A stretch of DNA of 64,000 bases from a bacterium (GTDB lineage Bacteria; Bacteroidota; Bacteroidia; Bacteroidales; UBA3663). Shown piece by piece: positions 19,043 to 33,141 of the stretch. The stretch is from the NCBI GenBank assembly GCA_963624265.1, contig CAVFPF010000063.1:17059-81058 (forward strand), read 5' to 3'. Made by a program: the position numbers and the translations under genes. The notes under the pieces were generated by a model. It worked only from the letters and a program-made list of their open reading frames with translations. It had not been told where the DNA came from and searched no databases. How positions within the stretch are numbered: the stretch's first letter is position 1; each line of letters starts with the position of its first letter.

Positions 19043-21565
19043 TCAGAAGTCTGAAGTCATATACTTTCGGCCATTGCGGATAGAGATAGGCGCGCCGAAT
19101 GCCGTCTTGCGGCCCATAAGGTCATAGACCGGAAGCATCGGATAAGCAGCGCGGTCTTCGATGCGGTCAATGCTCGAGCCGTCCTGGCCGTCAATGGAGA
19201 GTTTAGGGCTGACATCAGACAACGCTCCGTGTTCGCCGACGCTCTGTATCTGTACTACGTCTCCTGCTTTGGCCTCATACCGGCAGTCGGTCGGGAAGGC
19301 CACGGGCTTGCCATTGACAAAGACAATATAGCAGACCACATATTTGTCGGCAGTCCACGTGACCGTCGTTCCAGACTTCATGACTATTGGAGTCGAAGGC
19401 TTGTCGACGAAGGTCTGAGGACTCCAGTAACCGGCTGCCGTTGTCGTTCCGTCGCCGGCAAAAACATTCGTTATGGTGTACTCTGCCGCCTCCTCATCAC
19501 TCAACTGACTCTTGGCCGTAGCATAAACGCGGTTGCCGGAGCTATCAGTATTATAGTAAGTGGTACGACTGACCGTGCTCAGTGCCTTTCCCTTGGCATT
19601 GTAGAAATCGTAGACCGCCCAGATAGCAGGCAGTCCGCCCATTGTAGCATACCACAGCGAGTCCATCGGGGTGAGGTCCATCTGAGTGTGCAGGAACACG
19701 GTCTTCGGATACTCGTGCCACGGACGGCCCAACCAGATAGAATAGCGCGACGGGTCAGCGACATCGTCGGTCGTGATGTGACAGTTGTTGAAGACATAAC
19801 CCCAGCGTGTCTCCTTCGGATGATTAGGCGCGACAATAAAGCCGCCACTCGAACGGCAGATATTGAGCAGACAGTTTTCAAACCACACATCACTCGAACC
19901 ATAGATGAAGTCGACAGCACCCTCTATCTCACACCCGTTCCAGAATGTGCGGTTGTAAGTACCACCATTGAAGTAAGTGTCTTGGTACGAACGCGCGCGT
20001 ACATTATTTAATATAGCACGGTCACCTTGTATGCAGAAAGACAAAGCTTGCGGGCCAGCCTGCTTCTTGACGGTCCAATTTTCGTTGTCGACAGTCAAAT
20101 TGCCCATATAGAAATCCGTACCGCCAGACATCACCTCGACAGTAGCACCGGCGCTGACATGATACCACGGACGGCTATGGTCATCCATGCTGCCGCACAA
20201 GCGGTCGGTGGCTATAATTACGCTGTCACGACTTTGACCGATAAGATGGATGTTGGGTTTGTTGATATGGATAAGGCGGCAACTGTCCAAATGATTGATG
20301 GCGCCATTCGAAAGTCGGGTTGTCTCTGTACCCGCTGACGTCGAAGGGTCGTTGTAATAGAACCCGTACCCGCCCGTAAAGCTAAAGTTCGGGTCACGAT
20401 AGTAACCGTTCTTGATGTAAATCAAATACGGTTCTGTGCAGTCAGACGGAGCGTCATCGATAGCGGCTTGAATGGAGCGGTACTGCGTGGGCATGTCGTC
20501 TGTGGCTGCGATGCGATAATCCTTGCCGCTTTCTGTTCCCTTGGCAAGCGACAACTGCGTCAACGAACCGTCGACAATGGCATTGAAAGTGCGTGCCGTT
20601 GGCACGGGACGCGACAAGACCGTGAAGCGGAAGTCGAGAGCCGAGGCCTTTTTGTCGCCGACGACAGAGACCACATACCCCTCAGGGATGTCGAGCCGAT
20701 AACTTGCGCCGTAGTCCAATCCCACATAGTTGAGGGTAAGCGCACGGCTACTCCAAACGGGCTGCAGAACGCGCACTGTGCCGTCGTCCGTATTGGTGAG
20801 CGTCACCGAGCCCTCGCCCTGCATGACACGTGCGTTGTAATTGACAATGATTTTGCCACTGCGCGTCAAGTCCTTGACTCCATTTTCCGGCGAGGTGGAA
20901 AGAATCTCAAGGGGCGCTTCGTCTGATGTGCCCATGACGGTGCCTGACACCACGACATTGGCCAAACCATGCGACTTGTCCGTGCCCAATCCATAGATGC
21001 TGAACTTGACTTTCAGCGGAGACTCTGCATCAGCCGCCAGACCGTTGATGTCATAACTGTATTGTGACAGATCGTTTTTCTTACCCGAACGGTTGGGCAC
21101 GAAGTCCCGTCCAAGGACGAGTTCGTCCGAACCGCAGCAGACCGAAACCTGCCACTTGCCGCCATCCGTGCCAAAACGGGCAGCATCGAAGGTCAGCTTT
21201 GTAGGGATAAAGACGCCGCCATTTGTCATACCTGTGGTGAAGGTCAGCGTATTGCCGGCAACGGGCGAAGAACTATTGCTACCGCCTGTTACGTTCTTGA
21301 TACTGGTGAAAGTAGCCGCCCCGGTCGCGCCGCTCCAGCTGGCCGTACCGTTGAAGCCCATCTCTGCCCCCAGCGTGATGGTGTCGCCAATAAAGTAAGC
21401 GTTGGCCTCATAGGGGTCATAGTCGGGCTTCTGTCCGGCAGTACCCTTGCCAAAGGTCCAAGTGACAGAGGCGTCGTTGATGGTCACGTTGTCGGCCAAA
21501 GCCTGCTGGCTCAGAGCGAAGAGACCCAAAAGGGTCGTCAATGTAAGTGTAATTTGACTTTTCAT
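19043..21565 (-). CDS. CE8 pectinesterase-family protein with an N-terminal beta-sandwich/Ig-like region and a T9SS C-terminal sorting tail
   Basis: The 840-aa ORF has a signal peptide. All the CE8 motifs are present: GYYRD, QALSF, YQDTYF, GAVDFIYG and LGRPW. The C-terminus VYDLMGRK...IRNGRKYM resembles a T9SS CTD. Confidence 0.8.
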   Translation of the reverse strand: MKSQITLTLTTLLGLFALSQQALADNVTINDASVTWTFGKGTAGQKPDYDPYEANAYFIGDTITLGAEMGFNGTASWSGATGAATFTSIKNVTGGSNSSSPVAGNTLTFTTGMTNGGVFIPTKLTFDAARFGTDGGKWQVSVCCGSDELVLGRDFVPNRSGKKNDLSQYSYDINGLAADAESPLKVKFSIYGLGTDKSHGLANVVVSGTVMGTSDEAPLEILSTSPENGVKDLTRSGKIIVNYNARVMQGEGSVTLTNTDDGTVRVLQPVWSSRALTLNYVGLDYGASYRLDIPEGYVVSVVGDKKASALDFRFTVLSRPVPTARTFNAIVDGSLTQLSLAKGTESGKDYRIAATDDMPTQYRSIQAAIDDAPSDCTEPYLIYIKNGYYRDPNFSFTGGYGFYYNDPSTSAGTETTRLSNGAINHLDSCRLIHINKPNIHLIGQSRDSVIIATDRLCGSMDDHSRPWYHVSAGATVEVMSGGTDFYMGNLTVDNENWTVKKQAGPQALSFCIQGDRAILNNVRARSYQDTYFNGGTYNRTFWNGCEIEGAVDFIYGSSDVWFENCLLNICRSSGGFIVAPNHPKETRWGYVFNNCHITTDDVADPSRYSIWLGRPWHEYPKTVFLHTQMDLTPMDSLWYATMGGLPAIWAVYDFYNAKGKALSTVSRTTYYNTDSSGNRVYATAKSQLSDEEAAEYTITNVFAGDGTTTAAGYWSPQTFVDKPSTPIVMKSGTTVTWTADKYVVCYIVFVNGKPVAFPTDCRYEAKAGDVVQIQSVGEHGALSDVSPKLSIDGQDGSSIDRIEDRAAYPMLPVYDLMGRKTAFGAPISIRNGRKYMTSDF

Positions 21566-21689
21566 TCAGTTAGTGAATTTAGGTTTATATCAGTCGTTAT
21601 GGTTCTTAAGGTCCTTTACCGCAAACGAGCAGAACGGCAAGTCTGCAACACACGCCCTTGCAAGGCAGCGCGCTTGCCTTCCGGCATCG

Positions 21690-21697
21690 CAAAGATA
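21690..21697 (-). promoter_or_regulatory. Candidate -7 box TATCTTTG for the 19043-21565 gene
   Basis: The plus strand reads caaagata, about 125 nt upstream of the ATG. The hairpin aaggca/tgcctt lies in the predicted leader. Confidence 0.4.
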
Positions 21698-21760
21698 ACC
21701 ATAATATTTATACTATAAGTCATTCGGTCGAAAAAAGGCCACAATTTGCCCCAAAAATTT

Positions 21761-21826
21761 GCCAACTGGAAAATTATTGTCGGTTAACTGGAAAAATTAT
21801 TTTTCTCAACTAACCGGATTATGAAG
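21761..21826. repeat. Three 22-bp phased units carrying an AACTGG core
   Basis: The units are gCCAACTGGaaaatt (core at 21764), gTTAACTGGaaaaatt (core at 21786) and cTCAACTAAcc (core at 21808). The AACT register repeats every 22 bp. Confidence 0.7.
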
Positions 21827-21901
21827 CCGAATTTGCCAGAAATCGAAACCGAATCTGTTGCCTGTTGCAGTATACAAGAACCCTGTCGAAATACGGACAA
21901 T

Positions 21902-21970
21902 GAAAAAAAGAAAAAGAACGGGAAGAAGAGAGGGAGTGGAATCGTCTGTCAAGGCGAGCCCCTCCTTCTT
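21902..21970 (-). terminator. Rho-independent terminator of the 22007-25390 gene
   Basis: On the minus strand, aagaaggagggg...ctccctctcttctt forms an imperfect stem followed by cccgttctttttcttttttt. Confidence 0.5.
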
Positions 21971-22006
21971 GATGTATTTATAATCTTGCCCAGTTAGGCT
22001 GACTTA

Positions 22007-25000
22007 TCATTTGAAAGCCTTGCGGCCATTGACAATCATAAATCCGCGACCGTTGGCGTTAGCCTTACGTCCCAGCAAATCGTAGCAATCGCCGGCTGCG
22101 GCAGAGGCTGCCTTAACCAAGTCGATACCTGAAGCCGAATTGAGGCTGACGGCTACCGTCTTGTTGCTCAGGCCTCCGAATTCGTTGGCAGCACGCACGG
22201 TGTACTTGCTGTCGGCATCGGCAGGCGTAAAGCTCCGCTCAGTCGTGATGGCAGCCACCTCACCGACTTCGTTCTCGACCACATAGCAGATGGCATACGG
22301 TACAGCAGGCCAAACGAGAGCTCCCTCGGAAGCCGACACCTTAGGTGTGGCGCAAGCCGTCGTGATGAGAGCGGGATTCCAGGCATCGCTGCCGGTCAGC
22401 ATGTTCTTGAGTGTGTAGCTGGCGGCTTCGGCGTCTGACAGGCTCACCTGCACATCTTTGACTGTGTCGGTACTGTTGTAGTAGGTGGTCTGACGCTTGG
22501 AAGTGTCGACCAAATTGCCGGCAGCGTCGCGGGTGTTGTAGTCGGCATAGAGGGCCGGCAGACCGCCCATCGTCTCATACCATCCCTCCGGATAGATGTT
22601 GACAGCTGTTGTGGTGTTGATAAACACTACCTGCGGGTTGCTGTGCCAAGGACGGCCGAAGTATACCGATACGCTGGCCGGGTCAAACGTAGTCGAGGTG
22701 ATGTAGTTGTTGACAAAAGCATAGCCCCATGTGGTCGTTGCGCTGTGTTCGGCAGCGGTGATATAACCTCCATCCTTGCGGTTTATGTCGAGCGTGTCGT
22801 TCTCAAAGAGTACATTGCCCTTGCCGTAGATGAAATCTACTGCACCCGTGATGTACGAATCCTTGGCATAGTGGCGGTAGTTGTCGGTCGAAGTGGTGAG
22901 CCAAGTATCTTGGTAAGAATGCAGGCCGACCTTGTTGATGATGAAGCGGTCGCAGTTCGAACGGAGAGCCAAGGCCTGCGGTCCGACCTTGAAGTCACGT
23001 CCCCAGCTGTTGGAGAGACTGACGCCCTCAAACATCACATTGGCAGCGGTCACGAGTACAGAAGCGCCATCCATACCGCTGTTGGGCTTGGCATTGGGCT
23101 CGACAGCCTCCGGATTGTCTGTATCACCAGAGAGTTGGTTGTAGTAGATGTCGACCACATCGCGGCCTTGACCGATGATGTGCATATAAGGCTTGGAGAT
23201 GGCCAGGTGCTCATAGTACTTGCCTGCCTTGACAAAAATCAAGTAGGGTTCAGTGGCCGAAGCAGGAGCGGCATCGACAGCCTCCTGAATAGTCAAATAG
23301 TCGCCCGAACCATCGGCAGCCACAACGGCGTCATAGAGACGCGGAGCCGGCTGGGTGCGCTCTTCGGTTGTAAAGTTGATGTTGATGGCCTCGGCATACT
23401 TGTTGCCGCTGAGGTCCTTGATGGAGTTGGCGGGCACAGTAAACGTATAGTCTGTTGCATAGTCGAGCAATGTGTAGGCAAACAGCATAGAGTTGCCGGC
23501 CACTTTGGCCTTAATCTTCTCGCCATTGAGCGTAGCGTAAGCACCGTTGGCCATCTGTACCTTCTCGTCGAAGGTGAGGATAACAGAACCGGTGATGGCT
23601 GCGCCCGTCCCCTGGTTGGCAGGGATGCTGGCTTCGAGCTTCGGCGCGGCAACATCGCCAGCCGGAACTCCGGAAGCAGAAACATAGAAGGCACGCATGC
23701 AGAACTCCTCATAAGAGTTCTCGGTCAGTGTGGCAGCATCCTCCGGATGGCTTACGCGCACATATACATTCTCCTGGTCGTTGCATTCGGCAGGAAGAGT
23801 TACCTCGTGGTTGGTCCAATGGTTAACACTCATGACGGCATTGTCACCGACCTTCTTCCAGTTCTCGTTGTCAAGGCTGTACTCGAGGAAGTAGAAGTTC
23901 CATGCGCCCCACGAACCGGCGCCAATCGAGGCATAGATGCCGATATTGCTGCAGCCCTTTGTGCTGAAGTGGGCCTGGAAGTAGTGGTTGGAAGCGAAAG
24001 TCTTGTTGACGCGCACACAAGAGGCACCGTTGTAGGTCGTCACACTTGCATCATACCACTTGCCGCTGGCAGTCTTGCCGTCGGTAGTCAACATCAGCGT
24101 GCTCTCCTGATTGTATTCGTTGCCTGCAGCAGCGACATAGTCATTGCCACCGGGCTGCGTGAAATCCCAACCTACGATATAGTTGCCAGACATTCCGAAA
24201 TTGGCAACCACATCAGTAGCTCCCGTGATGTTGACACGGCGCACAAGCGAAGTCGAACCGTTGTCCCAATAGAGGAAGTTCATCAAGTCAGTCGAATTGG
24301 CGGTTAGGGTAACGGTCGTACCATCCTCGTAATAGGTCACGCTGTCCTTCTCGCCGGGGTCTTTGGTCGAAGTCGTTGTGACCATATAGTCCTTGGCGTT
24401 TTTGATAGTCAATGAGAACGGATAGACGGAAGCCTCCTTATAGACGGCGGTGAGGTTGACGTCAGAGGTCATAACCACCTTGCAGGGATTCTCTGTCGAT
24501 ACGGTGTTGCCGGCAGCATCGACCCATTTGTCAAACTTGTAGCCCAAGTTCTCGTTGGCGGTCAAAGACACCTCTGTGCTGTCGATGAATTCCACGCCGT
24601 TGGGAGTATTGGTCACCGAACCGGCTGTTTCTGGCGAAACGGCAATGGTCAGCGTGTGCATCTTGAAGTCTCCGTCAGACTCTATACCCGTGATTTTGCA
24701 CTGATTGAGATAACGGGTCCAAGTCTGCTGCGACTCCGGGAAGTCGATCAGACGGACCTTGACGCTCCACTCGTTGGAAGGCAGTGTAACATCGTAGTTG
24801 GTCCACTGTCCGTTAGTGGCGGCAACTTTCTGCACGAAAGTCCAAGTCTCGCCTTCATCAAGAGAATAAACGACGTGGAAGTAACAGTCGTTCATATTAC
24901 TCTTCACGCTGAAGTTCATGTTGACGGCCACAAATCCGTCGGTCGAGAGATTAAACTCGAAGTAGTTGTTGTAGCTGTCGATGTTGGCCTTCGAGTAGGG

Positions 25001-25390
25001 ATCGGTTGCGGCAAGGTTGTTCATGTTGCCGACATTCCAATAGAGGTGGTTGCTTGCATCAAGAGTCCAGGTGTGGCTGGTCTTGATCTGCAGGTTGCAG
25101 GCATCGGCCGAACCCGTGTAATCGTTGGGGTAGAAAATCGGCTTCAGGTTGTTCCACCAGGTTCCGCCCTGCTTGGTTGAGAATGCCACACCGCTTTGAG
25201 GTGTATAGGTCGAGTAGTTGGGTTTCTCCTCGTCCTCAACGGCCTCGACCGTATACTCTTGCGAGAAGTTCCACTCGGCGATTGTGACGCGCTTCACTTC
25301 TTCGGCAGCATAAAGGCCGAAACCGGAAGTCAACGCCAAAACTCCTGCCACAAGACTTGTGCGCAAAGAGCTAATGTAATGCTTGTTCAT
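22007..25390 (-). CDS. Large CE8 pectinesterase-family protein with two N-terminal beta-sandwich modules, an InlB-B-repeat-like segment, an Ig-like domain and a T9SS C-terminal tail
   Basis: The 1127-aa ORF has a signal peptide. The CE8 motifs are GKYYE, QALAL, YQDTWL, GAVDFIYG and FGRPW. The C-terminus is CYDLLGRKANANGRGFMIVNGRKAFK. An internal segment (LGYKFDKWVDAAGNTV...LTAVYKE) resembles the Listeria-Bacteroides repeat. Confidence 0.8.
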   Translation of the reverse strand: MNKHYISSLRTSLVAGVLALTSGFGLYAAEEVKRVTIAEWNFSQEYTVEAVEDEEKPNYSTYTPQSGVAFSTKQGGTWWNNLKPIFYPNDYTGSADACNLQIKTSHTWTLDASNHLYWNVGNMNNLAATDPYSKANIDSYNNYFEFNLSTDGFVAVNMNFSVKSNMNDCYFHVVYSLDEGETWTFVQKVAATNGQWTNYDVTLPSNEWSVKVRLIDFPESQQTWTRYLNQCKITGIESDGDFKMHTLTIAVSPETAGSVTNTPNGVEFIDSTEVSLTANENLGYKFDKWVDAAGNTVSTENPCKVVMTSDVNLTAVYKEASVYPFSLTIKNAKDYMVTTTSTKDPGEKDSVTYYEDGTTVTLTANSTDLMNFLYWDNGSTSLVRRVNITGATDVVANFGMSGNYIVGWDFTQPGGNDYVAAAGNEYNQESTLMLTTDGKTASGKWYDASVTTYNGASCVRVNKTFASNHYFQAHFSTKGCSNIGIYASIGAGSWGAWNFYFLEYSLDNENWKKVGDNAVMSVNHWTNHEVTLPAECNDQENVYVRVSHPEDAATLTENSYEEFCMRAFYVSASGVPAGDVAAPKLEASIPANQGTGAAITGSVILTFDEKVQMANGAYATLNGEKIKAKVAGNSMLFAYTLLDYATDYTFTVPANSIKDLSGNKYAEAININFTTEERTQPAPRLYDAVVAADGSGDYLTIQEAVDAAPASATEPYLIFVKAGKYYEHLAISKPYMHIIGQGRDVVDIYYNQLSGDTDNPEAVEPNAKPNSGMDGASVLVTAANVMFEGVSLSNSWGRDFKVGPQALALRSNCDRFIINKVGLHSYQDTWLTTSTDNYRHYAKDSYITGAVDFIYGKGNVLFENDTLDINRKDGGYITAAEHSATTTWGYAFVNNYITSTTFDPASVSVYFGRPWHSNPQVVFINTTTAVNIYPEGWYETMGGLPALYADYNTRDAAGNLVDTSKRQTTYYNSTDTVKDVQVSLSDAEAASYTLKNMLTGSDAWNPALITTACATPKVSASEGALVWPAVPYAICYVVENEVGEVAAITTERSFTPADADSKYTVRAANEFGGLSNKTVAVSLNSASGIDLVKAASAAAGDCYDLLGRKANANGRGFMIVNGRKAFK

Positions 25391-25471
25391 TATGAAATGG
25401 ATGTTTTTAAGGTGAATAATATGGTTAGACTAGTTTGTTTGCAATTTTATTTGCAATGCGGATTGCAAGCG

Positions 25472-25479
25472 CAAAGGTA
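25472..25479 (-). promoter_or_regulatory. Candidate -7 box TACCTTTG for the 22007-25390 gene
   Basis: The plus strand reads caaaggta, about 82 nt upstream of the ATG. A second candidate, caaatata, is at about 25513. Confidence 0.4.
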
Positions 25480-25657
25480 TTCTGTTTTTTTTGTGCAGGC
25501 AGGAGAAAAAAGTGCAAATATAGGAGAAGTGTGAGAGGATTTTCGTACGGATATTGGGTGATTTTTGTACGAAACCCGGCTCACAACGCACGCAAAAGAG
25601 GCTTCCGGGTAGTGCTCGTCAGCTCTCAACCCAATACAAGTACGGCAGATTATCATC

Positions 25658-25811
25658 AGTCATCGAGTCAGTACCTTCTGTTGAGGATTCCAGTAGCGAA
25701 CGTTGAGGACTCCAGTACCGAACATTGAGGACTACAGTACCAACTATAGAGGACTCCGGCACCAACTGTTGGTTGCAGAAGAACTTTCTATAGAGTACGG
25801 CAGCACTCACA
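25658..25811. repeat. Tandem array of a 22-bp unit: four good copies plus degenerate flanking copies
   Basis: The good units are 25680 gttgaggattccagtagcgaac, 25702 gttgaggactccagtaccgaac, 25724 attgaggactacagtaccaact and 25746 atagaggactccggcaccaact. Degenerate units follow at 25768 and 25790. The array is flanked by agtacggcag at 25639 and 25795. Confidence 0.85.
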
Positions 25812-25985
25812 AGGGAAGCTCCGGCACAAGAAACATAGGAATGGGATGAAAGAAACGCGACTTTTAGCGAAAAGAAACGTAACTTTGTGTGAAGAGAAAC
25901 GGGGGCTCTTACACAAAGCTACGTAGAGAATCGATGTCGGGAGGAATCCGTAAAGCAGACGATGCGGACAGAATGGACCAATCCG

Positions 25986-28388
25986 TCACACATCCTTAGA
26001 GCCAGAGTCATCGTGGCCTTCGGCATCTTCTTTCTTCGACTGGGCAAGTTGCTCCATATATTTGTTGGGGGTAATGCCCATCTTCTGCTTGAAGATACGC
26101 GTATAGTACTTCGGGTCGTTGTAGCCGCACATAAAGGCCACCTCGTTCACGCGGTGCTGCAGTGTGTCGAGGAGTTGCACAGAACGCTTCAACCTGATAT
26201 CGTTGATAAAGGCCGCCGGAGTGGTGTCGAGCATCTCCCTAAATCGGGAATACAAGATGGTGCGGCTGATGTGCATATAGTCGGCCAGTTTGTCAACATC
26301 CAACTGCGGGTCGCCAATATGCTCTTCTGTCGTCTTTGTGACAAGCGCCAGGAACTGCCGGTCTTTGTCCTCGACTATCGGTTTGCTGGGCTGTATGCCC
26401 GTGATGATGGCCGGGCCTTTGACCTTGATGATTTTAGTCTCGGGCTTGATGCGACGGTTAGCCTTCCATCCCCAATAGGCCAAGAGAACGAATACCAACA
26501 CTAAGAGAACAGCAACCCCCTTCTGCCACCATATCAGACTCACCCGGATGCAAATGTCACGCTGATTGTCCGACCAATAAATGCCTTGTGCATCCGTACT
26601 TCTCACCTCAAAGACGTGAGTGCCGGGCGACAGACGCCCAATAGGCAACTGCCCCAAACCGCCCAGCATCTGCCAAACACTATCAGACTTCTTGCGCCAT
26701 CCGTACTGCACAAGGCGAGGCAGCCGGTAGTCGATGGCTGTGACACGGATGTCGTTGACGGCCGATCCCCATCCGATGTCAATCGTGTCAGGCACGTTGA
26801 GCAACAAATCGGGCGTATAGCCTGTCGGACGATCCAGATGTATTGTCATTCGACCGAATGTCGTACCTAAGACAATCTGCCCATCGAGGACGAGCGGACT
26901 GGCCTCGCCGAAGGTGACGGTCGTACCGAATGCGGTTTGGTCTATACGGCGACTGTAGCCCGTCGTCGGGTCATAATACTGTACAGCATTGTCCGACACG
27001 AACCACAACTGTCCGTTCGAGTCTCGTGCAATGGCCAGAATGATGTCGTCTTCATCAGGAAGGTCGAGTTTTGTAAGCGACACTTCTTGCAGACTATTCT
27101 CACTGACCTGTTCCGGCAACTGGAACGTAAAGACACCTCCTGACAGGGTCGAAGCATAGAAACGTCCATCGGCACCCTGCTGTACGTACGAGAAGTCGGT
27201 ATTTCCGGTTTGGGCCAAAGTGCGCAGCGAACCGTCGACGAAGACCAGTCCACGCGTACTGCACAAAATATAGAGTTCGGGCGTAACGCAGCAGATGCGG
27301 CGCACTTTGCGAATATCTTCGTTCTCGTGCTGAGAGACGGCCGTCCCCTGTCGGTTGATCGAAATGGTCTGCACGCCTCCGTTCCAGGTGGCAACCATAA
27401 CCGTATCGTAGCCTACGACATGGAGGTCAAAGATATTGTTGTTGCTGAGTGCCGGATCGACATAGTGCCTAACCAGAGGACTACGGTCTGCCCGGCTGTC
27501 CAAAGCGCGGCTTTCAACACAATAAAGCCCCTGTCCGCGGCATCCGAGCCAGATGCGTCCGCAGTTATCCTGCTTTATGGCATAGACTATTGCGCCAAAG
27601 GGAGTTTTCTGCCTGACAACGTTGCCGTCGGCCGTCAAATATCCCAGCAACTGCCATTCGGGACTGTACTTATAGACATAGCCATTCTTGCACCCCAGCA
27701 AATAGCCTCCGTCATGCAAGGCAAGCATCGACCGTATCTCGTCACCGTATTTCTCCTCCGGGGCGCTGTCATCGACACAGTCAGTGGCCTCATAGGGTGT
27801 CTGGCCGAAACTGATTTGATAGAGGGCATCGTCAAAGTTAGCCCAGATATTGCCCTGCCGGTCGGACATGGCCATATAGTGGCTGTTTGTCGTCAGGCCG
27901 AGGCCTTCATACGGGATTACGTAACGGACCGAATCGTGGATGATGACGAGCCCGGTGCTATCGGCAAAGTTGGTCTCACGCACCGGACTAGACTGCCGTA
28001 TGTCAACGCTGTTCAGCTCGATGGGATCGAGCAGTCCGGTCTGCTCGTTGAGGATGTATTCGCGTCTGTCGTTTTGACGGACAGTCCAAATGCGATTGTC
28101 GAGGGTAACGCCGACCTGACGCACGCGCCCTATGTACTCGCCGTCGGAAGAGGCTTTGAAGGTAGTGAATGTCTCGCCGTCAAACCGGCAAACACCATTC
28201 CAAGTCCCCATCCAGATGTATCCGATGGAATCTTGTGCAAAGGAACTGATGATACGGTGTGACAGCCCGTCTTGCATAGTGTAGCGCTGATAATGGATCA
28301 TGTCCTTGGCCAAGACGGGCTCAGACAAGGACAAACAACCAGCTAAGAGAGGCAACAACAGACAATATGCAAAAAATAATATACGCAT
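25986..28388 (-). CDS. Membrane-anchored sensor-regulator: periplasmic beta-propeller plus Y_Y_Y domain, one TM helix, and a cytoplasmic AraC-type HTH. No histidine kinase or receiver domain is present
   Basis: Reg_prop-like repeats are present (IWMGTWNGVCRFD, RIWLGCRGQGLYCV, GQLWFVSDNAVQYYD). There is a Y_Y_Y-like segment (YRLPRLVQYGWRKK...LSPGTHVFEVRSTD), a TM helix (GVAVLLVLVFVLLAYWGW) and an AraC HTH (ISRTILYSRFREMLDTTPAAFINDIRLKRS...VAFMCGYNDPKYYTRIFKQKMGITP). The probable start is the ATG at 28388; the track uses the TTG at 28409. Confidence 0.8.
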   Translation of the reverse strand: MRILFFAYCLLLPLLAGCLSLSEPVLAKDMIHYQRYTMQDGLSHRIISSFAQDSIGYIWMGTWNGVCRFDGETFTTFKASSDGEYIGRVRQVGVTLDNRIWTVRQNDRREYILNEQTGLLDPIELNSVDIRQSSPVRETNFADSTGLVIIHDSVRYVIPYEGLGLTTNSHYMAMSDRQGNIWANFDDALYQISFGQTPYEATDCVDDSAPEEKYGDEIRSMLALHDGGYLLGCKNGYVYKYSPEWQLLGYLTADGNVVRQKTPFGAIVYAIKQDNCGRIWLGCRGQGLYCVESRALDSRADRSPLVRHYVDPALSNNNIFDLHVVGYDTVMVATWNGGVQTISINRQGTAVSQHENEDIRKVRRICCVTPELYILCSTRGLVFVDGSLRTLAQTGNTDFSYVQQGADGRFYASTLSGGVFTFQLPEQVSENSLQEVSLTKLDLPDEDDIILAIARDSNGQLWFVSDNAVQYYDPTTGYSRRIDQTAFGTTVTFGEASPLVLDGQIVLGTTFGRMTIHLDRPTGYTPDLLLNVPDTIDIGWGSAVNDIRVTAIDYRLPRLVQYGWRKKSDSVWQMLGGLGQLPIGRLSPGTHVFEVRSTDAQGIYWSDNQRDICIRVSLIWWQKGVAVLLVLVFVLLAYWGWKANRRIKPETKIIKVKGPAIITGIQPSKPIVEDKDRQFLALVTKTTEEHIGDPQLDVDKLADYMHISRTILYSRFREMLDTTPAAFINDIRLKRSVQLLDTLQHRVNEVAFMCGYNDPKYYTRIFKQKMGITPNKYMEQLAQSKKEDAEGHDDSGSKDV

Positions 28389-28406: not shown

Positions 28407-28414
28407 CAAAGATA
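28407..28414 (-). promoter_or_regulatory. Candidate -7 box TATCTTTG for the regulator gene
   Basis: The plus strand reads caaagata, about 20 nt upstream of the ATG at 28388. This implies a very short leader. Confidence 0.35.
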
Positions 28415-29116
28415 GTGATTTTTTTTGCAGAAATAGAAAAAAACGAAGAGGGAACCGTCGTATTTTCTCTTTTATGAAACGTTTTTACTCTATTTTGAGT
28501 AAATTCACTTACAAAATCGCAAGATAAATGCTTTCTGACAAAAACATATCGTGGAGAAAAACACACGGAAGAATGGCGAATGACAAACCCAGGGAGAACA
28601 TGTAAAGCAGGCTAAGACTAGTCGACCAAAGCCGAAAGTGGACAAAGGGTTTGATGCAACGAAAGCAAAATCTCCGACCCAAACCCGTAGAAACAGGAAG
28701 AACGGCCCGTCCTCCCGACGTGCCGTTCCTTCATTACCTTAAATCTAATACCATGAAAAACACAGTGCAAAAATAGACATTCTTTCAGAAACACAAAGGC
28801 AACCGATTGCACAATCAACGTTTTTTAACTAAAAAATAAGTGTTAGCAACCGAAAATGACAAGTCCAATGGACAAAAACAATACAGCAACCAACAAAAAG
28901 CAGCAACTCCATGGGGCAAAGGATTCTCCATTCCACAAATACGGCACTAAAAAGTCGAGCGTTTAGAAAATACCAACGACTCTGACTTTGGTCCTTATCT
29001 ACACACAAGGCCGTCAACCGACACGCTATAGTTGACTTTTGGCCAAAAAATCGTAACAATAGACCTTGTTTTGACGGAAAAATGAAGTTTTTTTTGGAAA
29101 AATCAATATAAACCTC

Positions 29117-30567: not shown

Positions 30568-33141
30568 ATGGAAAACATGAAGTACTCCCGCTTTGATGCG
30601 GGCATGGCTACCGGCACATACACGCCCCACAACAATAGCGGGCGGAAACCGAAGAGCGCCAGTTCGCAACGCTTCAACATGAAGGACTTCCTCATGATGA
30701 TGTTGGCCAACTGGTTTTGGTTCATCATCAGCGCCATCATCGCTTTCGGCGTTGGCTACCTCTACTTGCAGACCTTGCAACCCGAGTACCAGAGGTCTAC
30801 CGACCTTCAGATTAAGTTCTCGAAAAGCGACGAACTCGACATGCGCACCTACTTGGGCATACACGACCTGGGCGTCACCAACATGAGTAACGAACTCTAT
30901 ATTCTCAACTCTCTCAAACTGGCTTCGCAGGTCAGCCAACGCATGCATTTAGACGTTCGCTATTATCTGCAAGGGCCTTTCCGCCGCCAATATCTCTACG
31001 AAGACCGACCCTTCACCGTCACCTTTCTGAATCCATACGACGGCGACATCAGTCTCAAAATCGAACCGATATCACCACAGCAATTCCGACTTAAAGAAGT
31101 CATTGCCGGCGGCACTATACAAAACCTCGGACTCGATTCGCTCTACTATTTCTCAGCACCGTTCCTGCTGCCGGGCACAACGCAGACCATGCGTCTTGAC
31201 GTGAGCGACAGCCAGTACCCTTCGTTGGTCAAAGACATCGACAAGACGGTCATCGTAGACCGCTACAGCCCTGAAGCTGCCGCCGCCCGTTGCCACGGCA
31301 TGGTCATAGCCAGTACCCGCGCAGCAGCGATGGTCCGCATCACCTGTACCTCACCGTCGGTGGTCGAGTGTGACTCCATTCTTTGCTGTTTTGTCGCCGT
31401 CTACAACGGCCAGACGCTGGAGGAAAAGAATGCTTTGACTATCAGTTCGGCACGCTTTATAGACGAACGCATACAAGAGACCGCCCAAGAACTGGGTGAG
31501 ACGGAAAGCCGCCTCTTCACCATGGCCGGCGAAGCCGACCTGTCACCGACAAGCACTGCCAGCGATTTCTCCCGCCAGATTAGCGAGCGCGACCGTGCAC
31601 AAGAGGAACTAGCACAGTTGCAGACACAATTGGTGGCTGCACGTGACCTGAAGAAACGCCTCTCAGTAGCCATCGGGCAAAAAGATTACATCCCAGCCCT
31701 GGCCGGCGTAACCGAATCGGGTGTGTCGGGACAGATTTCTGCCTACAATACGCAAGTGATGCAACGCAACCGGCTGATATCCAACTCTTCAGCCAGCAAC
31801 CCTGCCGTGCTCCGCATCGATGCTTCGCTCGACAATATGTCCCTCGCCATCACTTCGGGCATCGATGCCTATATCGCATCTCTCAGTCAAAAGTCCCGTT
31901 TGGCCAGCAGCCGCGTACAGCGCTACTCTAACATCGGTGAGTCAACGCACAAAAACCGATACGACAGTACCAATATCGAGGCCAAGTCACTCAGCATCAC
32001 ACGCGACTACAAGGAGTCGTACTTCTCTTTCTTGCTTAAGAAACGTGAAGAACTACGTCTCCAAATAGCTGTTTCCGAAGCCGACACACGTGTCATCGAA
32101 GATCCGATGGGCTCTACCGCCCCGATTTCCCCCGTGCCCAACAGCATTATCTCCAAGTTCGTGATTGCAGGACTGATTCTGCCAGCTGCCATTATGCTCA
32201 TCGTACTGCTGATGCACACTGGGGTGCGCGGACGCAAGGACATCGAGGAGTCTCTCACGATGCCGTATATCGGCGAGGTGCCCGACTACAACAAAGCGCG
32301 CGACTCGCGCTCGCTATGGGACCGCATACGTGGTGTAGACAACCGCATCAAGAGCAACCGCATTGCTATCACCAACGAGAGCAAGAATGCCCTCGCCGAA
32401 GGCATGCACGTGGTGCAGAGCAACCTTTCGTTTATGTCTGACAGCAAAGGCCACCGTCCCCAGGTCATCCTATTCACGTCATTTGCACCGGGTGCAGGCA
32501 AGAGTTTTGTCTCTGTCAACCTCGCCTCTTGTATGGCCAACACGGAGAAGCGTTCCATTTGGATAGATATGGATATTCGCAAGGGACACAAGAACCAATT
32601 GCTCTTCACCAAGGAGGACTGGGCTCGTCAGCGCCGGGGCCATCGCACCGGACTGTCGTCTTACCTCTCCGGAAAAGCAGCTCTCGAGGATTGTATCTTC
32701 CAGTCTGCCTCCAATAGCCAACTCGACATCTTGCCGGCCGGACAGATTCCGCCCAATCCCGTACAGCTGCTGATGAGCGACAAACTGGACCAGCTCATTG
32801 CCGACTTGCGCCAACGCTACGAGTACATCATCCTTGACACAGTTCCGGCTGCGCTCATCGCAGACTCGTACATCTGTTCGCGTCTCTCTGACCTGCAGAT
32901 TTTTGTCGTGCGTGTAGGTGTCACAGACCGTGCTCTCCTACCCGAAATCGAGAAAATCTATCAGTCGCACAAATTCAAGAACCTCACCGTACTCCTCAAC
33001 GGCTCGTCGCTCAACCGCCGCCGCTACGGCTATGGATACGGCTATGGATACGGCTATGGATACGGCTATGGATACGGATATGGCGAAAGCGATGACAACA
33101 AGAAATCAAAAAGCGCATCCGCTGCCGACGATGAAGCTTAA
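30568..33141 (+). CDS. Polysaccharide co-polymerase / BY-kinase (Wzc/GumC-like, PCP-2a type) with a C-terminal Tyr-Gly repeat tail
   Basis: The 857-aa ORF has an N-terminal TM helix and a Wzz-like periplasmic region with coiled coil, then a second TM helix. It has Walker A (FAPGAGKSF), a Walker B-like motif (YIILDTVPA), and a tail of ten YG dipeptides by DNA count. Confidence 0.85.
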   Translation: MENMKYSRFDAGMATGTYTPHNNSGRKPKSASSQRFNMKDFLMMMLANWFWFIISAIIAFGVGYLYLQTLQPEYQRSTDLQIKFSKSDELDMRTYLGIHDLGVTNMSNELYILNSLKLASQVSQRMHLDVRYYLQGPFRRQYLYEDRPFTVTFLNPYDGDISLKIEPISPQQFRLKEVIAGGTIQNLGLDSLYYFSAPFLLPGTTQTMRLDVSDSQYPSLVKDIDKTVIVDRYSPEAAAARCHGMVIASTRAAAMVRITCTSPSVVECDSILCCFVAVYNGQTLEEKNALTISSARFIDERIQETAQELGETESRLFTMAGEADLSPTSTASDFSRQISERDRAQEELAQLQTQLVAARDLKKRLSVAIGQKDYIPALAGVTESGVSGQISAYNTQVMQRNRLISNSSASNPAVLRIDASLDNMSLAITSGIDAYIASLSQKSRLASSRVQRYSNIGESTHKNRYDSTNIEAKSLSITRDYKESYFSFLLKKREELRLQIAVSEADTRVIEDPMGSTAPISPVPNSIISKFVIAGLILPAAIMLIVLLMHTGVRGRKDIEESLTMPYIGEVPDYNKARDSRSLWDRIRGVDNRIKSNRIAITNESKNALAEGMHVVQSNLSFMSDSKGHRPQVILFTSFAPGAGKSFVSVNLASCMANTEKRSIWIDMDIRKGHKNQLLFTKEDWARQRRGHRTGLSSYLSGKAALEDCIFQSASNSQLDILPAGQIPPNPVQLLMSDKLDQLIADLRQRYEYIILDTVPAALIADSYICSRLSDLQIFVVRVGVTDRALLPEIEKIYQSHKFKNLTVLLNGSSLNRRRYGYGYGYGYGYGYGYGYGYGESDDNKKSKSASAADDEA
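33025..33084 (+). repeat. Five tandem copies of a 12-bp unit (tacggctatgga) encoding (YG)10
   Basis: There are four perfect units at 33025-33072 and one variant unit, tacggatatggc, at 33073-33084. The repeat is in frame with the kinase gene. Confidence 0.9.

Follow-up and report, generated by a model that had tools for sequence, protein, structure and literature searches.

Intergenic VNTRs of bacteria (in Mycobacterium tuberculosis, the MIRU-VNTR loci) are used for MLVA typing. They are non-coding, have units of tens of bp, occupy one fixed locus, differ between strains by whole units and carry units that are homogenised within a lineage, and in all these respects they resemble the 22-bp tandem repeat described here (array 1), which was found in a 64-kb stretch of bacterial DNA (the window, i.e., the whole stretch that was analysed). 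Array 1 differs from them in that its unit is as long as the distance between half-sites of the DNA-binding domain that the neighbouring gene encodes, and in that a second array of the same period lies 60–90 bp away. Its host is an uncultured member of the Bacteroidota, a phylum for which a literature search returned no described example.

In connection with the neighbouring AraC-type regulator, the closest characterised proteins are those of the HTCS type, for which the predicted motifs are direct repeats approximately 21 bp apart (PMC3878776). Footprints of BT4124 revealed tandem half-sites 21–22 bp apart, with four half-sites in one promoter, and the footprinted HTCS sites lay at −126 to −34 from the start codon (PMC13292587). 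The premise of the first-pass annotation of this DNA, namely that AraC-type proteins bind direct repeats spaced 21–22 bp apart, is thus valid for HTCS (PMC3878776, PMC13292587). Like array 1, the BT4124 operators of bt4114 and bt4108 are built of direct repeats, with a period of 21–22 bp, and the AraC-type domain of BT4124, which uses up to four half-sites per promoter, belongs to the same subfamily as that of the regulator studied here. The BT4124 sites, however, occur as fixed pairs no more than about 130 bp from the start codon, whereas array 1 consists of 2–13 near-identical units at a distance of 290–380 bp, and the regulator in the window, unlike HTCS of the BT4124 type, is without kinase and receiver domains.

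A regulator of comparable layout, XynR of Prevotella bryantii B14, was reportedly described by Miyazaki and co-workers in 2003 as a membrane protein of roughly 800 aa whose C-terminal domain is of the AraC type. It is said to be encoded beside a xylanase cluster with symporter, GH10, GH43 and GH67 genes, and its reported binding site lies upstream of the symporter gene rather than downstream of the gene that encodes it. Distant orthologues of the window regulator share this setting, in that they adjoin a xylanase-type cluster with a symporter and GH10, GH43 and GH67 genes.

Lastly, tandem repeats of variable copy number are found upstream of ctxAB in Vibrio cholerae, where TTTTGAT heptads were originally reported to be a site for ToxR, a membrane-anchored regulator. 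The copy number of these heptads differs between strains, and they recruit ToxT, a member of the AraC family (bioRxiv 10.1101/2021.05.14.444153). They share with array 1 the position upstream of a promoter and the strain-variable copy number, but the ctxAB unit is 7 bp long, abuts the core promoter and has experimentally established binding and promoter effects, while array 1 has a 22-bp unit.

The regulator–CE8 spacer and its repeats

Array 1 lies in an intergenic region of 595 bp between two minus-strand genes, which Pfam searches identified as the AraC-type sensor gene and the large CE8 gene that the first-pass annotation had described. The regulator protein was found on many contigs; the gene order is the same in assemblies that encode the identical protein (the window lineage) and in others with a protein of approximately 92% identity (a sister lineage). 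The genes and the main elements of the spacer are as follows.

25986–28388, minus strand: regulator gene, 800 aa (Pfam Reg_prop and HTH_AraC, hydropathy, PDB matches)
25877–25924, minus strand: terminator-like hairpin of the regulator gene (RNA fold −24 kcal/mol, z = −7.0, 0/200 shuffles as stable)
25829–25901, minus strand: array 2, a second 22-bp repeat, unrelated in sequence to array 1 (Tandem Repeats Finder, unit counts, alignment)
25768–25826, minus strand: older degenerate units of 22–23 bp on the regulator side of array 1 (lineage alignments, sequence reading)
25654–25767, minus strand: array 1, a 22-bp variable-number tandem repeat (Tandem Repeats Finder, repeat search, lag-22 identity, allele counts)
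25639–25648, plus strand: 10-bp direct repeat AGTACGGCAG, copy 1, with copy 2 at 25794–25803 (repeat search)
25515–25522, minus strand: second TAnnTTTG match, TATATTTG (motif scan)
25472–25479, minus strand: −7 box of the CE8 gene, TACCTTTG, Bacteroidota-type (motif scan; conserved in all orthologous loci)
22007–25390, minus strand: CE8 gene, 1127 aa (Pfam Big_5/Flg_new_2/Pectinesterase; NCBIfam)

The regulator has a signal peptide, a periplasmic sensor of the HTCS type (Reg_prop), one transmembrane helix at approximately residues 620–642 and an AraC-type HTH at 708–786, and Pfam detected no histidine kinase or receiver domain. The best match of its DNA-binding domain is the solved HTCS fragment 12aw_A (E 4e-28); 4a2l and 3v9f are also among its PDB matches, and the sensor part resembles HTCS sensor structures. 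Given these matches and the lack of kinase and receiver domains, we take the protein to be an HTCS-derived one-component membrane regulator. The 1127-aa CE8 protein, encoded downstream of array 1, contains Ig-like domains and is probably secreted, judging by an N-terminal sequence that reads as a hydrophobic, signal-peptide-like stretch. A second CE8 gene follows at 19043–21565.

On the minus strand, the order of elements is terminator, array 2, degenerate units (25826–25768), array 1, about 80 bp of unique sequence and a promoter-proximal direct repeat; then, on the CE8 side, TATATTTG, the −7 box and a presumed 5′ UTR of about 75 nt leading to the ATG at 25390. The −7 box, here a putative promoter element, was present where the first-pass annotation had placed it, at 25472 on the minus strand, and the array, which had been put at roughly 200–330 bp upstream of it, lies 201–295 bp upstream. 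The hairpin begins 61 nt past the regulator stop codon and is followed by UUUCUUUUC (25876–25868), and the two can be read, from the predicted fold, as the intrinsic terminator of the regulator gene. Between the lineages, its stem is kept apart from a single G-U to G-C replacement, and its loop is variable. Array 2 overlaps the 3′ arm and the U-tract of this terminator. Its AGAAAC(G/A) cores start at 25829, 25851, 25873 and 25895 on the plus strand (sense strand CGTTTCTTT) and appear in minus-strand reading as phased CGTTTCT cores. One fuzzy-match count of array 2 gave 2 units for the window lineage, 1 for most alleles of the sister lineage and 6 for L001, and since this array also varies (1, 2 or 6 units) the spacer itself appears prone to 22-bp duplication.

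Array 1 comprises four to five units of 22 bp. Tandem Repeats Finder called it at 25680–25757 (period 22, 3.5 copies, 85% matches, score 98) and, more widely, at 25669–25767 (4.5 copies, 78% matches); a repeat search found four in-register copies at exact 22-bp spacing; and in a lag-22 scan identity was 16–19/22 over 25670–25746 and at background level beyond. These three analyses bear out the tandem array that had been proposed between the two genes. The consensus 22-mer had no further match in the window, and two or more matches arose in 0/100 shuffles. The units, all on the minus strand in sense register, are:

25763–25742, minus strand: unit GGTGCCGGAGTCCTCTATAGTT
25741–25720, minus strand: unit GGTACTGTAGTCCTCAATGTTC
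25719–25698, minus strand: unit GGTACTGGAGTCCTCAACGTTC
25697–25676, minus strand: unit GCTACTGGAATCCTCAACAGAA
25675–25654, minus strand: decayed unit GGTACTGACTCGATGACTGATG

The degenerate copies that the first-pass annotation saw on either side of the array are real, and one of them is a 22-bp presence/absence difference between the lineages: the degenerate unit at approximately 25780–25801, which contains the second AGTACGGCAG, corresponds to an exact 22-bp gap in the sister lineage. The 10-mer itself had been placed at 25639 and 25795; the first position is correct, while the second copy starts at 25794, one base earlier. Both copies of AGTACGGCAG sit in decayed units with a CCGTAC core. 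As the sister lineage has a single copy only, the pair does not represent a conserved target-site duplication, and by an arithmetic estimate about 0.17 such 10-bp direct-repeat pairs are expected by chance per 600 bp. The palindrome noted at 25761–25773 is also present, as ACCAACTGTTGGT (6+1+6), and is imperfect in the sister lineage.

Copy number and distribution of array 1

Copy-number variation between strains, which the first-pass annotation had proposed to look for, proved to be pronounced, with 2–13 core units between close strains. We counted the core unit GGTACTG in a set of 16 assemblies from the two sister lineages, and found 2 units in L006 and L008, 3 in the window, L003–5, L007, L031, L001 and L032, and 4 in L012 and L033. 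In L029 the count was 13, an approximate figure that may be imprecise if the assembly rests on short reads. The expansion in L029 is recent, because 12/13 units are identical. A short contig, L030, ends inside array 1. In alignments, all length differences between alleles were multiples of 22 bp, including one in the degenerate flank. The first-pass annotation had judged that the array does not look like coding sequence, and indeed a coding sequence can be rejected, as the 22-bp period is not divisible by 3 and is the exact length by which natural alleles differ.

Despite this fast turnover, array 1 is kept in 16/16 alleles of both lineages. A diagnostic base separates the two, with GTCCT in 14/14 units of the window lineage and GTACT in 27/27 units of the sister lineage, and this lineage-wide difference indicates concerted evolution. 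Array 1 thus has the head-to-tail units, the whole-unit differences between strains and the homogeneity within lineages that define a VNTR. The unit consensus differs at 1/22 positions between the lineages, as compared to 33/143 (23%) in the surrounding spacer (Fisher one-sided p = 0.033). Four-fold degenerate sites of the flanking genes show 20–26% divergence, and because the value for the spacer outside array 1 resembles this range, that sequence is near neutral. The low divergence of the unit hints at constraint on its sequence. Positions 8, 15 and 18 of the unit vary repeatedly in both lineages.

Outside the two lineages, we scanned one genome for each of 185,579 species with the degenerate 22-mer GGTACTGNAGTMCTYAAYRTTS, and obtained, apart from one solitary chance match, a single true locus, namely this intergenic region in the sister lineage. 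A scan of JGI metagenomes returned 12 lone matches, all on unrelated contigs and none of them in tandem. Viral contigs, plasmids and phages contained no match to the unit. Isolated copies of the unit were also absent from other promoters in the window and in the representative genome, and a blastn comparison of the intergenic region with the window and all loci returned chance 12–14-mers only. We can therefore reject a dispersed repeat, given one true genomic locus, chance matches and no tandem copy in metagenomes. According to the first-pass annotation, scattering of the repeat through the genome would have spoken against an operator; instead, array 1 is confined to one locus in one small clade of uncultured gut-type Bacteroidota.

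Five distant orthologues of the regulator (L009, L010, L011, L026 and L034; 41–59% identity) were examined, while L027/L028, which carry a 52% orthologue, were uninformative because of their different downstream context. Array 1 was absent from 5/5 of these distant loci and was thus found in the two sister lineages only. In 4/5 of them the regulator is followed, after an intergenic region of 135–170 bp, by a single CE8 gene of 1780 aa; in the closest, L034 (56% identity), a 212-bp region precedes a different esterase gene, probably GDSL-type by our reading of its sequence. Since the orthologous spacers are short and array-free, approximately 430 bp of the window's spacer, both arrays included, is a clade-specific addition. 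The distant loci have in common the −7 box and an upstream TTTCGTAC box with an inverted repeat, except that L010 is without the TTTCGTAC box. The outgroup intergenic regions held no significant direct repeat of 21–22 bp, the best being one in L034 (lag 24, 10/12, p = 0.08). Array 1 is, in short, a clade-specific, single-locus, hypervariable 22-bp minisatellite.

The promoter-proximal repeat and the operator question

A lag scan of the spacer revealed a further direct repeat with the same period, close to the CE8 promoter.

25538–25571, minus strand: proximal direct repeat, CGTACAAAAATC (25571–25560) and CGTACGAAAATC (25549–25538) (lag scan)

The two half-sites are 22 bp apart from start to start, lie 59–92 bp upstream of the CE8 −7 box and match at 11/12 positions at lag 22, with 0/300 shuffles as good. 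In the sister lineage, the repeat consists of CGTACGAAATTC twice (12/12), with the same base change in both half-sites. The proximal repeat overlaps an inverted repeat at 25530–25548/25567–25585 (fold z = −4.0). At lag 22, repeats of at least 11/12 occur at only three places in the 64-kb window, against an expectation of about 0.14 per lag. These are array 1, the proximal repeat (25538) and, upstream of the second CE8 gene, a TTTTCCAGTT pair (21764). All three fall in the two CE8 promoter regions.

Judged against what is described for HTCS operators, array 1 has the period of a half-site operator (22 bp), but it is not conserved among orthologues and, at 290–380 bp from the CE8 start codon, it is not close to the promoter. 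The proximal repeat has both the position and the conservation expected of such an operator and array 1 has neither, so that the repeat at 25538–25571 is the better candidate for a two-half-site operator of the HTCS type. Compared in phase with the proximal half-sites, the unit of array 1 matched at 24/44 positions in the window lineage (p = 0.017) and at 20/44 in the sister lineage (p = 0.47); in the window lineage, it shares GTAC-N5-TCCTC with proximal half-site 2. Comparison with the TTTTCCAGTT-pair repeat upstream of the second CE8 gene gave p = 0.10, and there was no significant local similarity to the regulator-promoter repeat or to array 2 (p > 0.6). An operator role of array 1 is a possibility, against which more of the results speak than in its favour.

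Candidate explanations and their implications

With modest confidence, we lean towards array 1 being a slippage product that has no essential regulatory role, the core operator being located at 25538–25571. On this view it is a young minisatellite in the probably untranscribed spacer between the regulator terminator and the CE8 promoter. Under this explanation, slipped-strand mispairing or unequal recombination would add and remove whole 22-bp units, and the same turnover would keep the units alike within a lineage by concerted evolution. The role of core operator would fall to the proximal repeat and not to array 1; the array would be dispensable for control of the CE8 gene by the regulator, and its copy number would at most modulate CE8 expression. 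We infer both that array 1 is not transcribed and that it lacks an essential function.

The main competing explanation, which we regard as possible but doubtful, is that the units are auxiliary half-sites for the adjacent HTCS-type regulator, forming a slippage-amplified structure upstream of the core operator that would serve as a copy-number-tunable binding platform, a reservoir or a decoy. An operator made of tandem half-sites is in itself a direct repeat and can therefore be amplified by slippage. The period equals the half-site spacing of HTCS (PMC3878776, PMC13292587), the neighbouring regulator has a DNA-binding domain of that type, array 1 is found only beside this regulator gene, and lag-22 repeats cluster at this locus. 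The unit consensus is moreover conserved above the spacer background (p = 0.033), with variation recurring at the same three positions (8, 15, 18), and the GTAC-N5-TCCTC shared with proximal half-site 2 in the window lineage (p = 0.017) points the same way. This explanation is weakened, however, by the absence of array 1 from 5/5 distant orthologous loci, by a copy number that varies between 2 and 13 without favouring any one architecture, and by the distance of the array, which is 200–300 bp upstream of the −7 box and reaches up to about 500 bp in L029. The unit is no closer to the proximal half-sites than chance predicts in the sister lineage (p = 0.47) and bears no resemblance to the repeat that precedes the second CE8 gene (p = 0.10), and there is no isolated unit at other promoters of the window or the representative genome. 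If the units were half-sites, CE8 expression level or inducibility would be predicted to differ between strains. The fuller proposal, that array 1 consists of slippage-amplified half-sites providing gut Bacteroidota with an evolvable setting of 2–13 sites for the strength of the CE8 response to a glycan signal, is more speculative still and we consider it rather improbable.

Array 1 might also be a contingency-type locus that acts independently of the neighbouring regulator, if unit number altered the geometry upstream of the promoter or affected how another factor binds, for instance a nucleoid protein or a methyltransferase specific for GTAC, so that strains would differ heritably in how much of the secreted CE8 protein they express. 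A hypervariable copy number in front of a gene whose product is a large enzyme, secreted or at the surface, would fit such a role, as would the conservation of the unit and the enrichment of GTAC, which reaches 7 per 300 bp around array 1, the maximum of the window, against a window mean of 0.9. We nevertheless discounted the enrichment as a signal, since the duplication itself largely accounts for it. We identified neither a methyltransferase nor another candidate factor, and steps of 22 bp preserve helical phase, so any geometric effect would be small. Phase variation in Bacteroidota, furthermore, as far as is known usually proceeds by invertible promoters, and altogether we regard a contingency function as unlikely. 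Still less probable, in our view, is that array 1 is part of a transcribed RNA, be it an extended 5′ leader on the CE8 mRNA or a small RNA from either strand. TAnnTTTG-like boxes in the terminator arms (TAGCTTTG at 25914 on the minus strand, TAACTTTG at 25880 on the plus strand) could be taken as promoters for one, but a strong terminator stands just upstream of array 1 and gain or loss of units would break any fixed structure. A structured RNA can be rejected for array 1, as Rfam gave no match (E ≤ 1 over the intergenic region, gathering scores over the window) and the array folds like shuffled controls on both strands (z = −0.39 and +0.23). The idea with the least credit is a mobile-element remnant or an iteron-type replication origin, although tandem 22-bp direct repeats flanked by a 10-bp direct repeat do recall the tandem 22-bp iterons of plasmid R6K. 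The hallmarks are absent: no rep, transposase or integrase gene lies nearby, chromosomal synteny is conserved, there are no terminal inverted repeats, AGTACGGCAG is single-copy in the sister lineage, and the unit occurs at a single genomic locus with no plasmid, phage or viral-contig match. The GC content of array 1 is 0.45–0.50. We have therefore rejected this idea as close to excluded.

If array 1 is only a minisatellite, its value is practical, as a strain marker with a single, highly polymorphic locus for a clade of uncultured gut/rumen-type Bacteroidota, and it would caution that direct repeats of 21–22 bp beside AraC-type genes are not automatically operators. If, on the other hand, the regulator binds the units, array 1 would be, to our knowledge, the first natural copy-number-variable operator of the HTCS type, and its alleles would provide a natural series of 2, 3, 4 and 13 sites for the use of tandem half-sites by a membrane-tethered regulator. 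Were the array a tunable operator, it would constitute the counterpart, with a 22-bp unit, of the ctxAB heptads. The locus further offers a concrete candidate for the core operator, CGTACRAAAWTC twice, 22 bp apart, which may serve as a starting point for the poorly studied HTCS-like regulators without kinase and receiver domains.

Candidate operators at the two CE8 genes

Two direct repeats lie upstream of the CE8 genes that follow the regulator gene (25986-28388, minus strand), which encodes an HTCS-type sensor with an AraC-type HTH:

25538-25571, minus strand: tandem direct repeat CGTACAAAAATC / CGTACGAAAATC, with a half-site spacing of exactly 22 bp
21764-21797, minus strand: direct repeat TTTTCCAGTT-N12-TTTTCCAGTT, 5' of the second CE8 gene (19043-21565)

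The strongest candidate for an HTCS-type operator at the CE8 promoter is the repeat at 25538-25571, which precedes the CE8 -7 box by 59-92 bp. In the sister lineage (close relatives with a ~92% identical regulator), its counterpart consists of two copies of CGTACGAAATTC with 12/12 matches, and its two half-sites share the same base change relative to the window.

The repeat at 21764-21797 has its CCAGTT cores spaced by 22 bp, and is located ~67-95 nt upstream of a -7 box, TATCTTTG (21690-21697). Compared with the sister lineage, the cores are kept while the intervening spacer has changed. This repeat looks like a second, putative two-half-site operator, distinct from that at 25538-25571.

Repeats flanking the regulator gene

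All tandem repeats in the 64-kb window with a period of at least 16 fall within the two intergenic regions that flank the regulator gene. Three further features were found here:

28459-28498: period-21 direct repeat upstream of the regulator gene (1.9 copies, 78%)
25829-25901 (8501-8633 in L001, one of 16 close alleles): array 2, a second 22-bp variable repeat
25877-25924, minus strand: strong terminator-like hairpin 3' of the regulator gene (-24 kcal/mol, z = -7.0)

Just downstream of the period-21 repeat, whose best 12-mer has 10/12 matches (p = 0.08), comes the -7 box of the regulator itself, TATCTTTG (~28411-28418).

At the other end of the gene, array 2 is made of regulator-terminator sequence (the 3' arm plus the U-tract), and its unit count is 1, 2 or 6 depending on the strain. 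Most units of the L001 array contain ACGTAGCTTTG (on the window's plus strand), which is similar to a TAnnTTTG -7 box oriented back into the regulator gene. Between lineages, the 25877-25924 hairpin has a variable loop and a conserved stem, one pair of which changes from G-U to G-C.

Gene order at the distant loci

We compared the gene order of window 19043-28388 with that of four distant orthologous loci (L009, L010, L011 and L026) and found three differences. The distant loci have a single CE8 gene (1780 aa) after the regulator, whereas the window clade has two (1127 and 840 aa). Where the distant loci have a xylan cluster, the window clade instead carries genes for ribosomal protein S21 and capsule export. 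Separately, the Wzz/AAA_31 (Wzc-like) gene (30568-33141) carries a 12-bp repeat, TACGGCTATGGA (33025-33083; 4.9 copies, 97% matches), at its 3' end; as translated, the repeat would give the predicted product a tyrosine-rich YGYG... tail, fitting a capsule tyrosine kinase.

Variable-looking repeats were also seen at two distant loci, namely the heptad AACTCAA (x9.6), separating GH10 fragments from the GH43 gene at L011 2886-2952, and, at L009 13956-14015, a period-23 repeat (2.6 copies) 3' of the giant CE8 gene.

The third difference in gene order is that the xylan cluster of the distant loci (GH115, MFS symporter, GH10, GH43, GH67) lies directly upstream of the regulator; together they resemble the xyn cluster and xynR of Prevotella bryantii.
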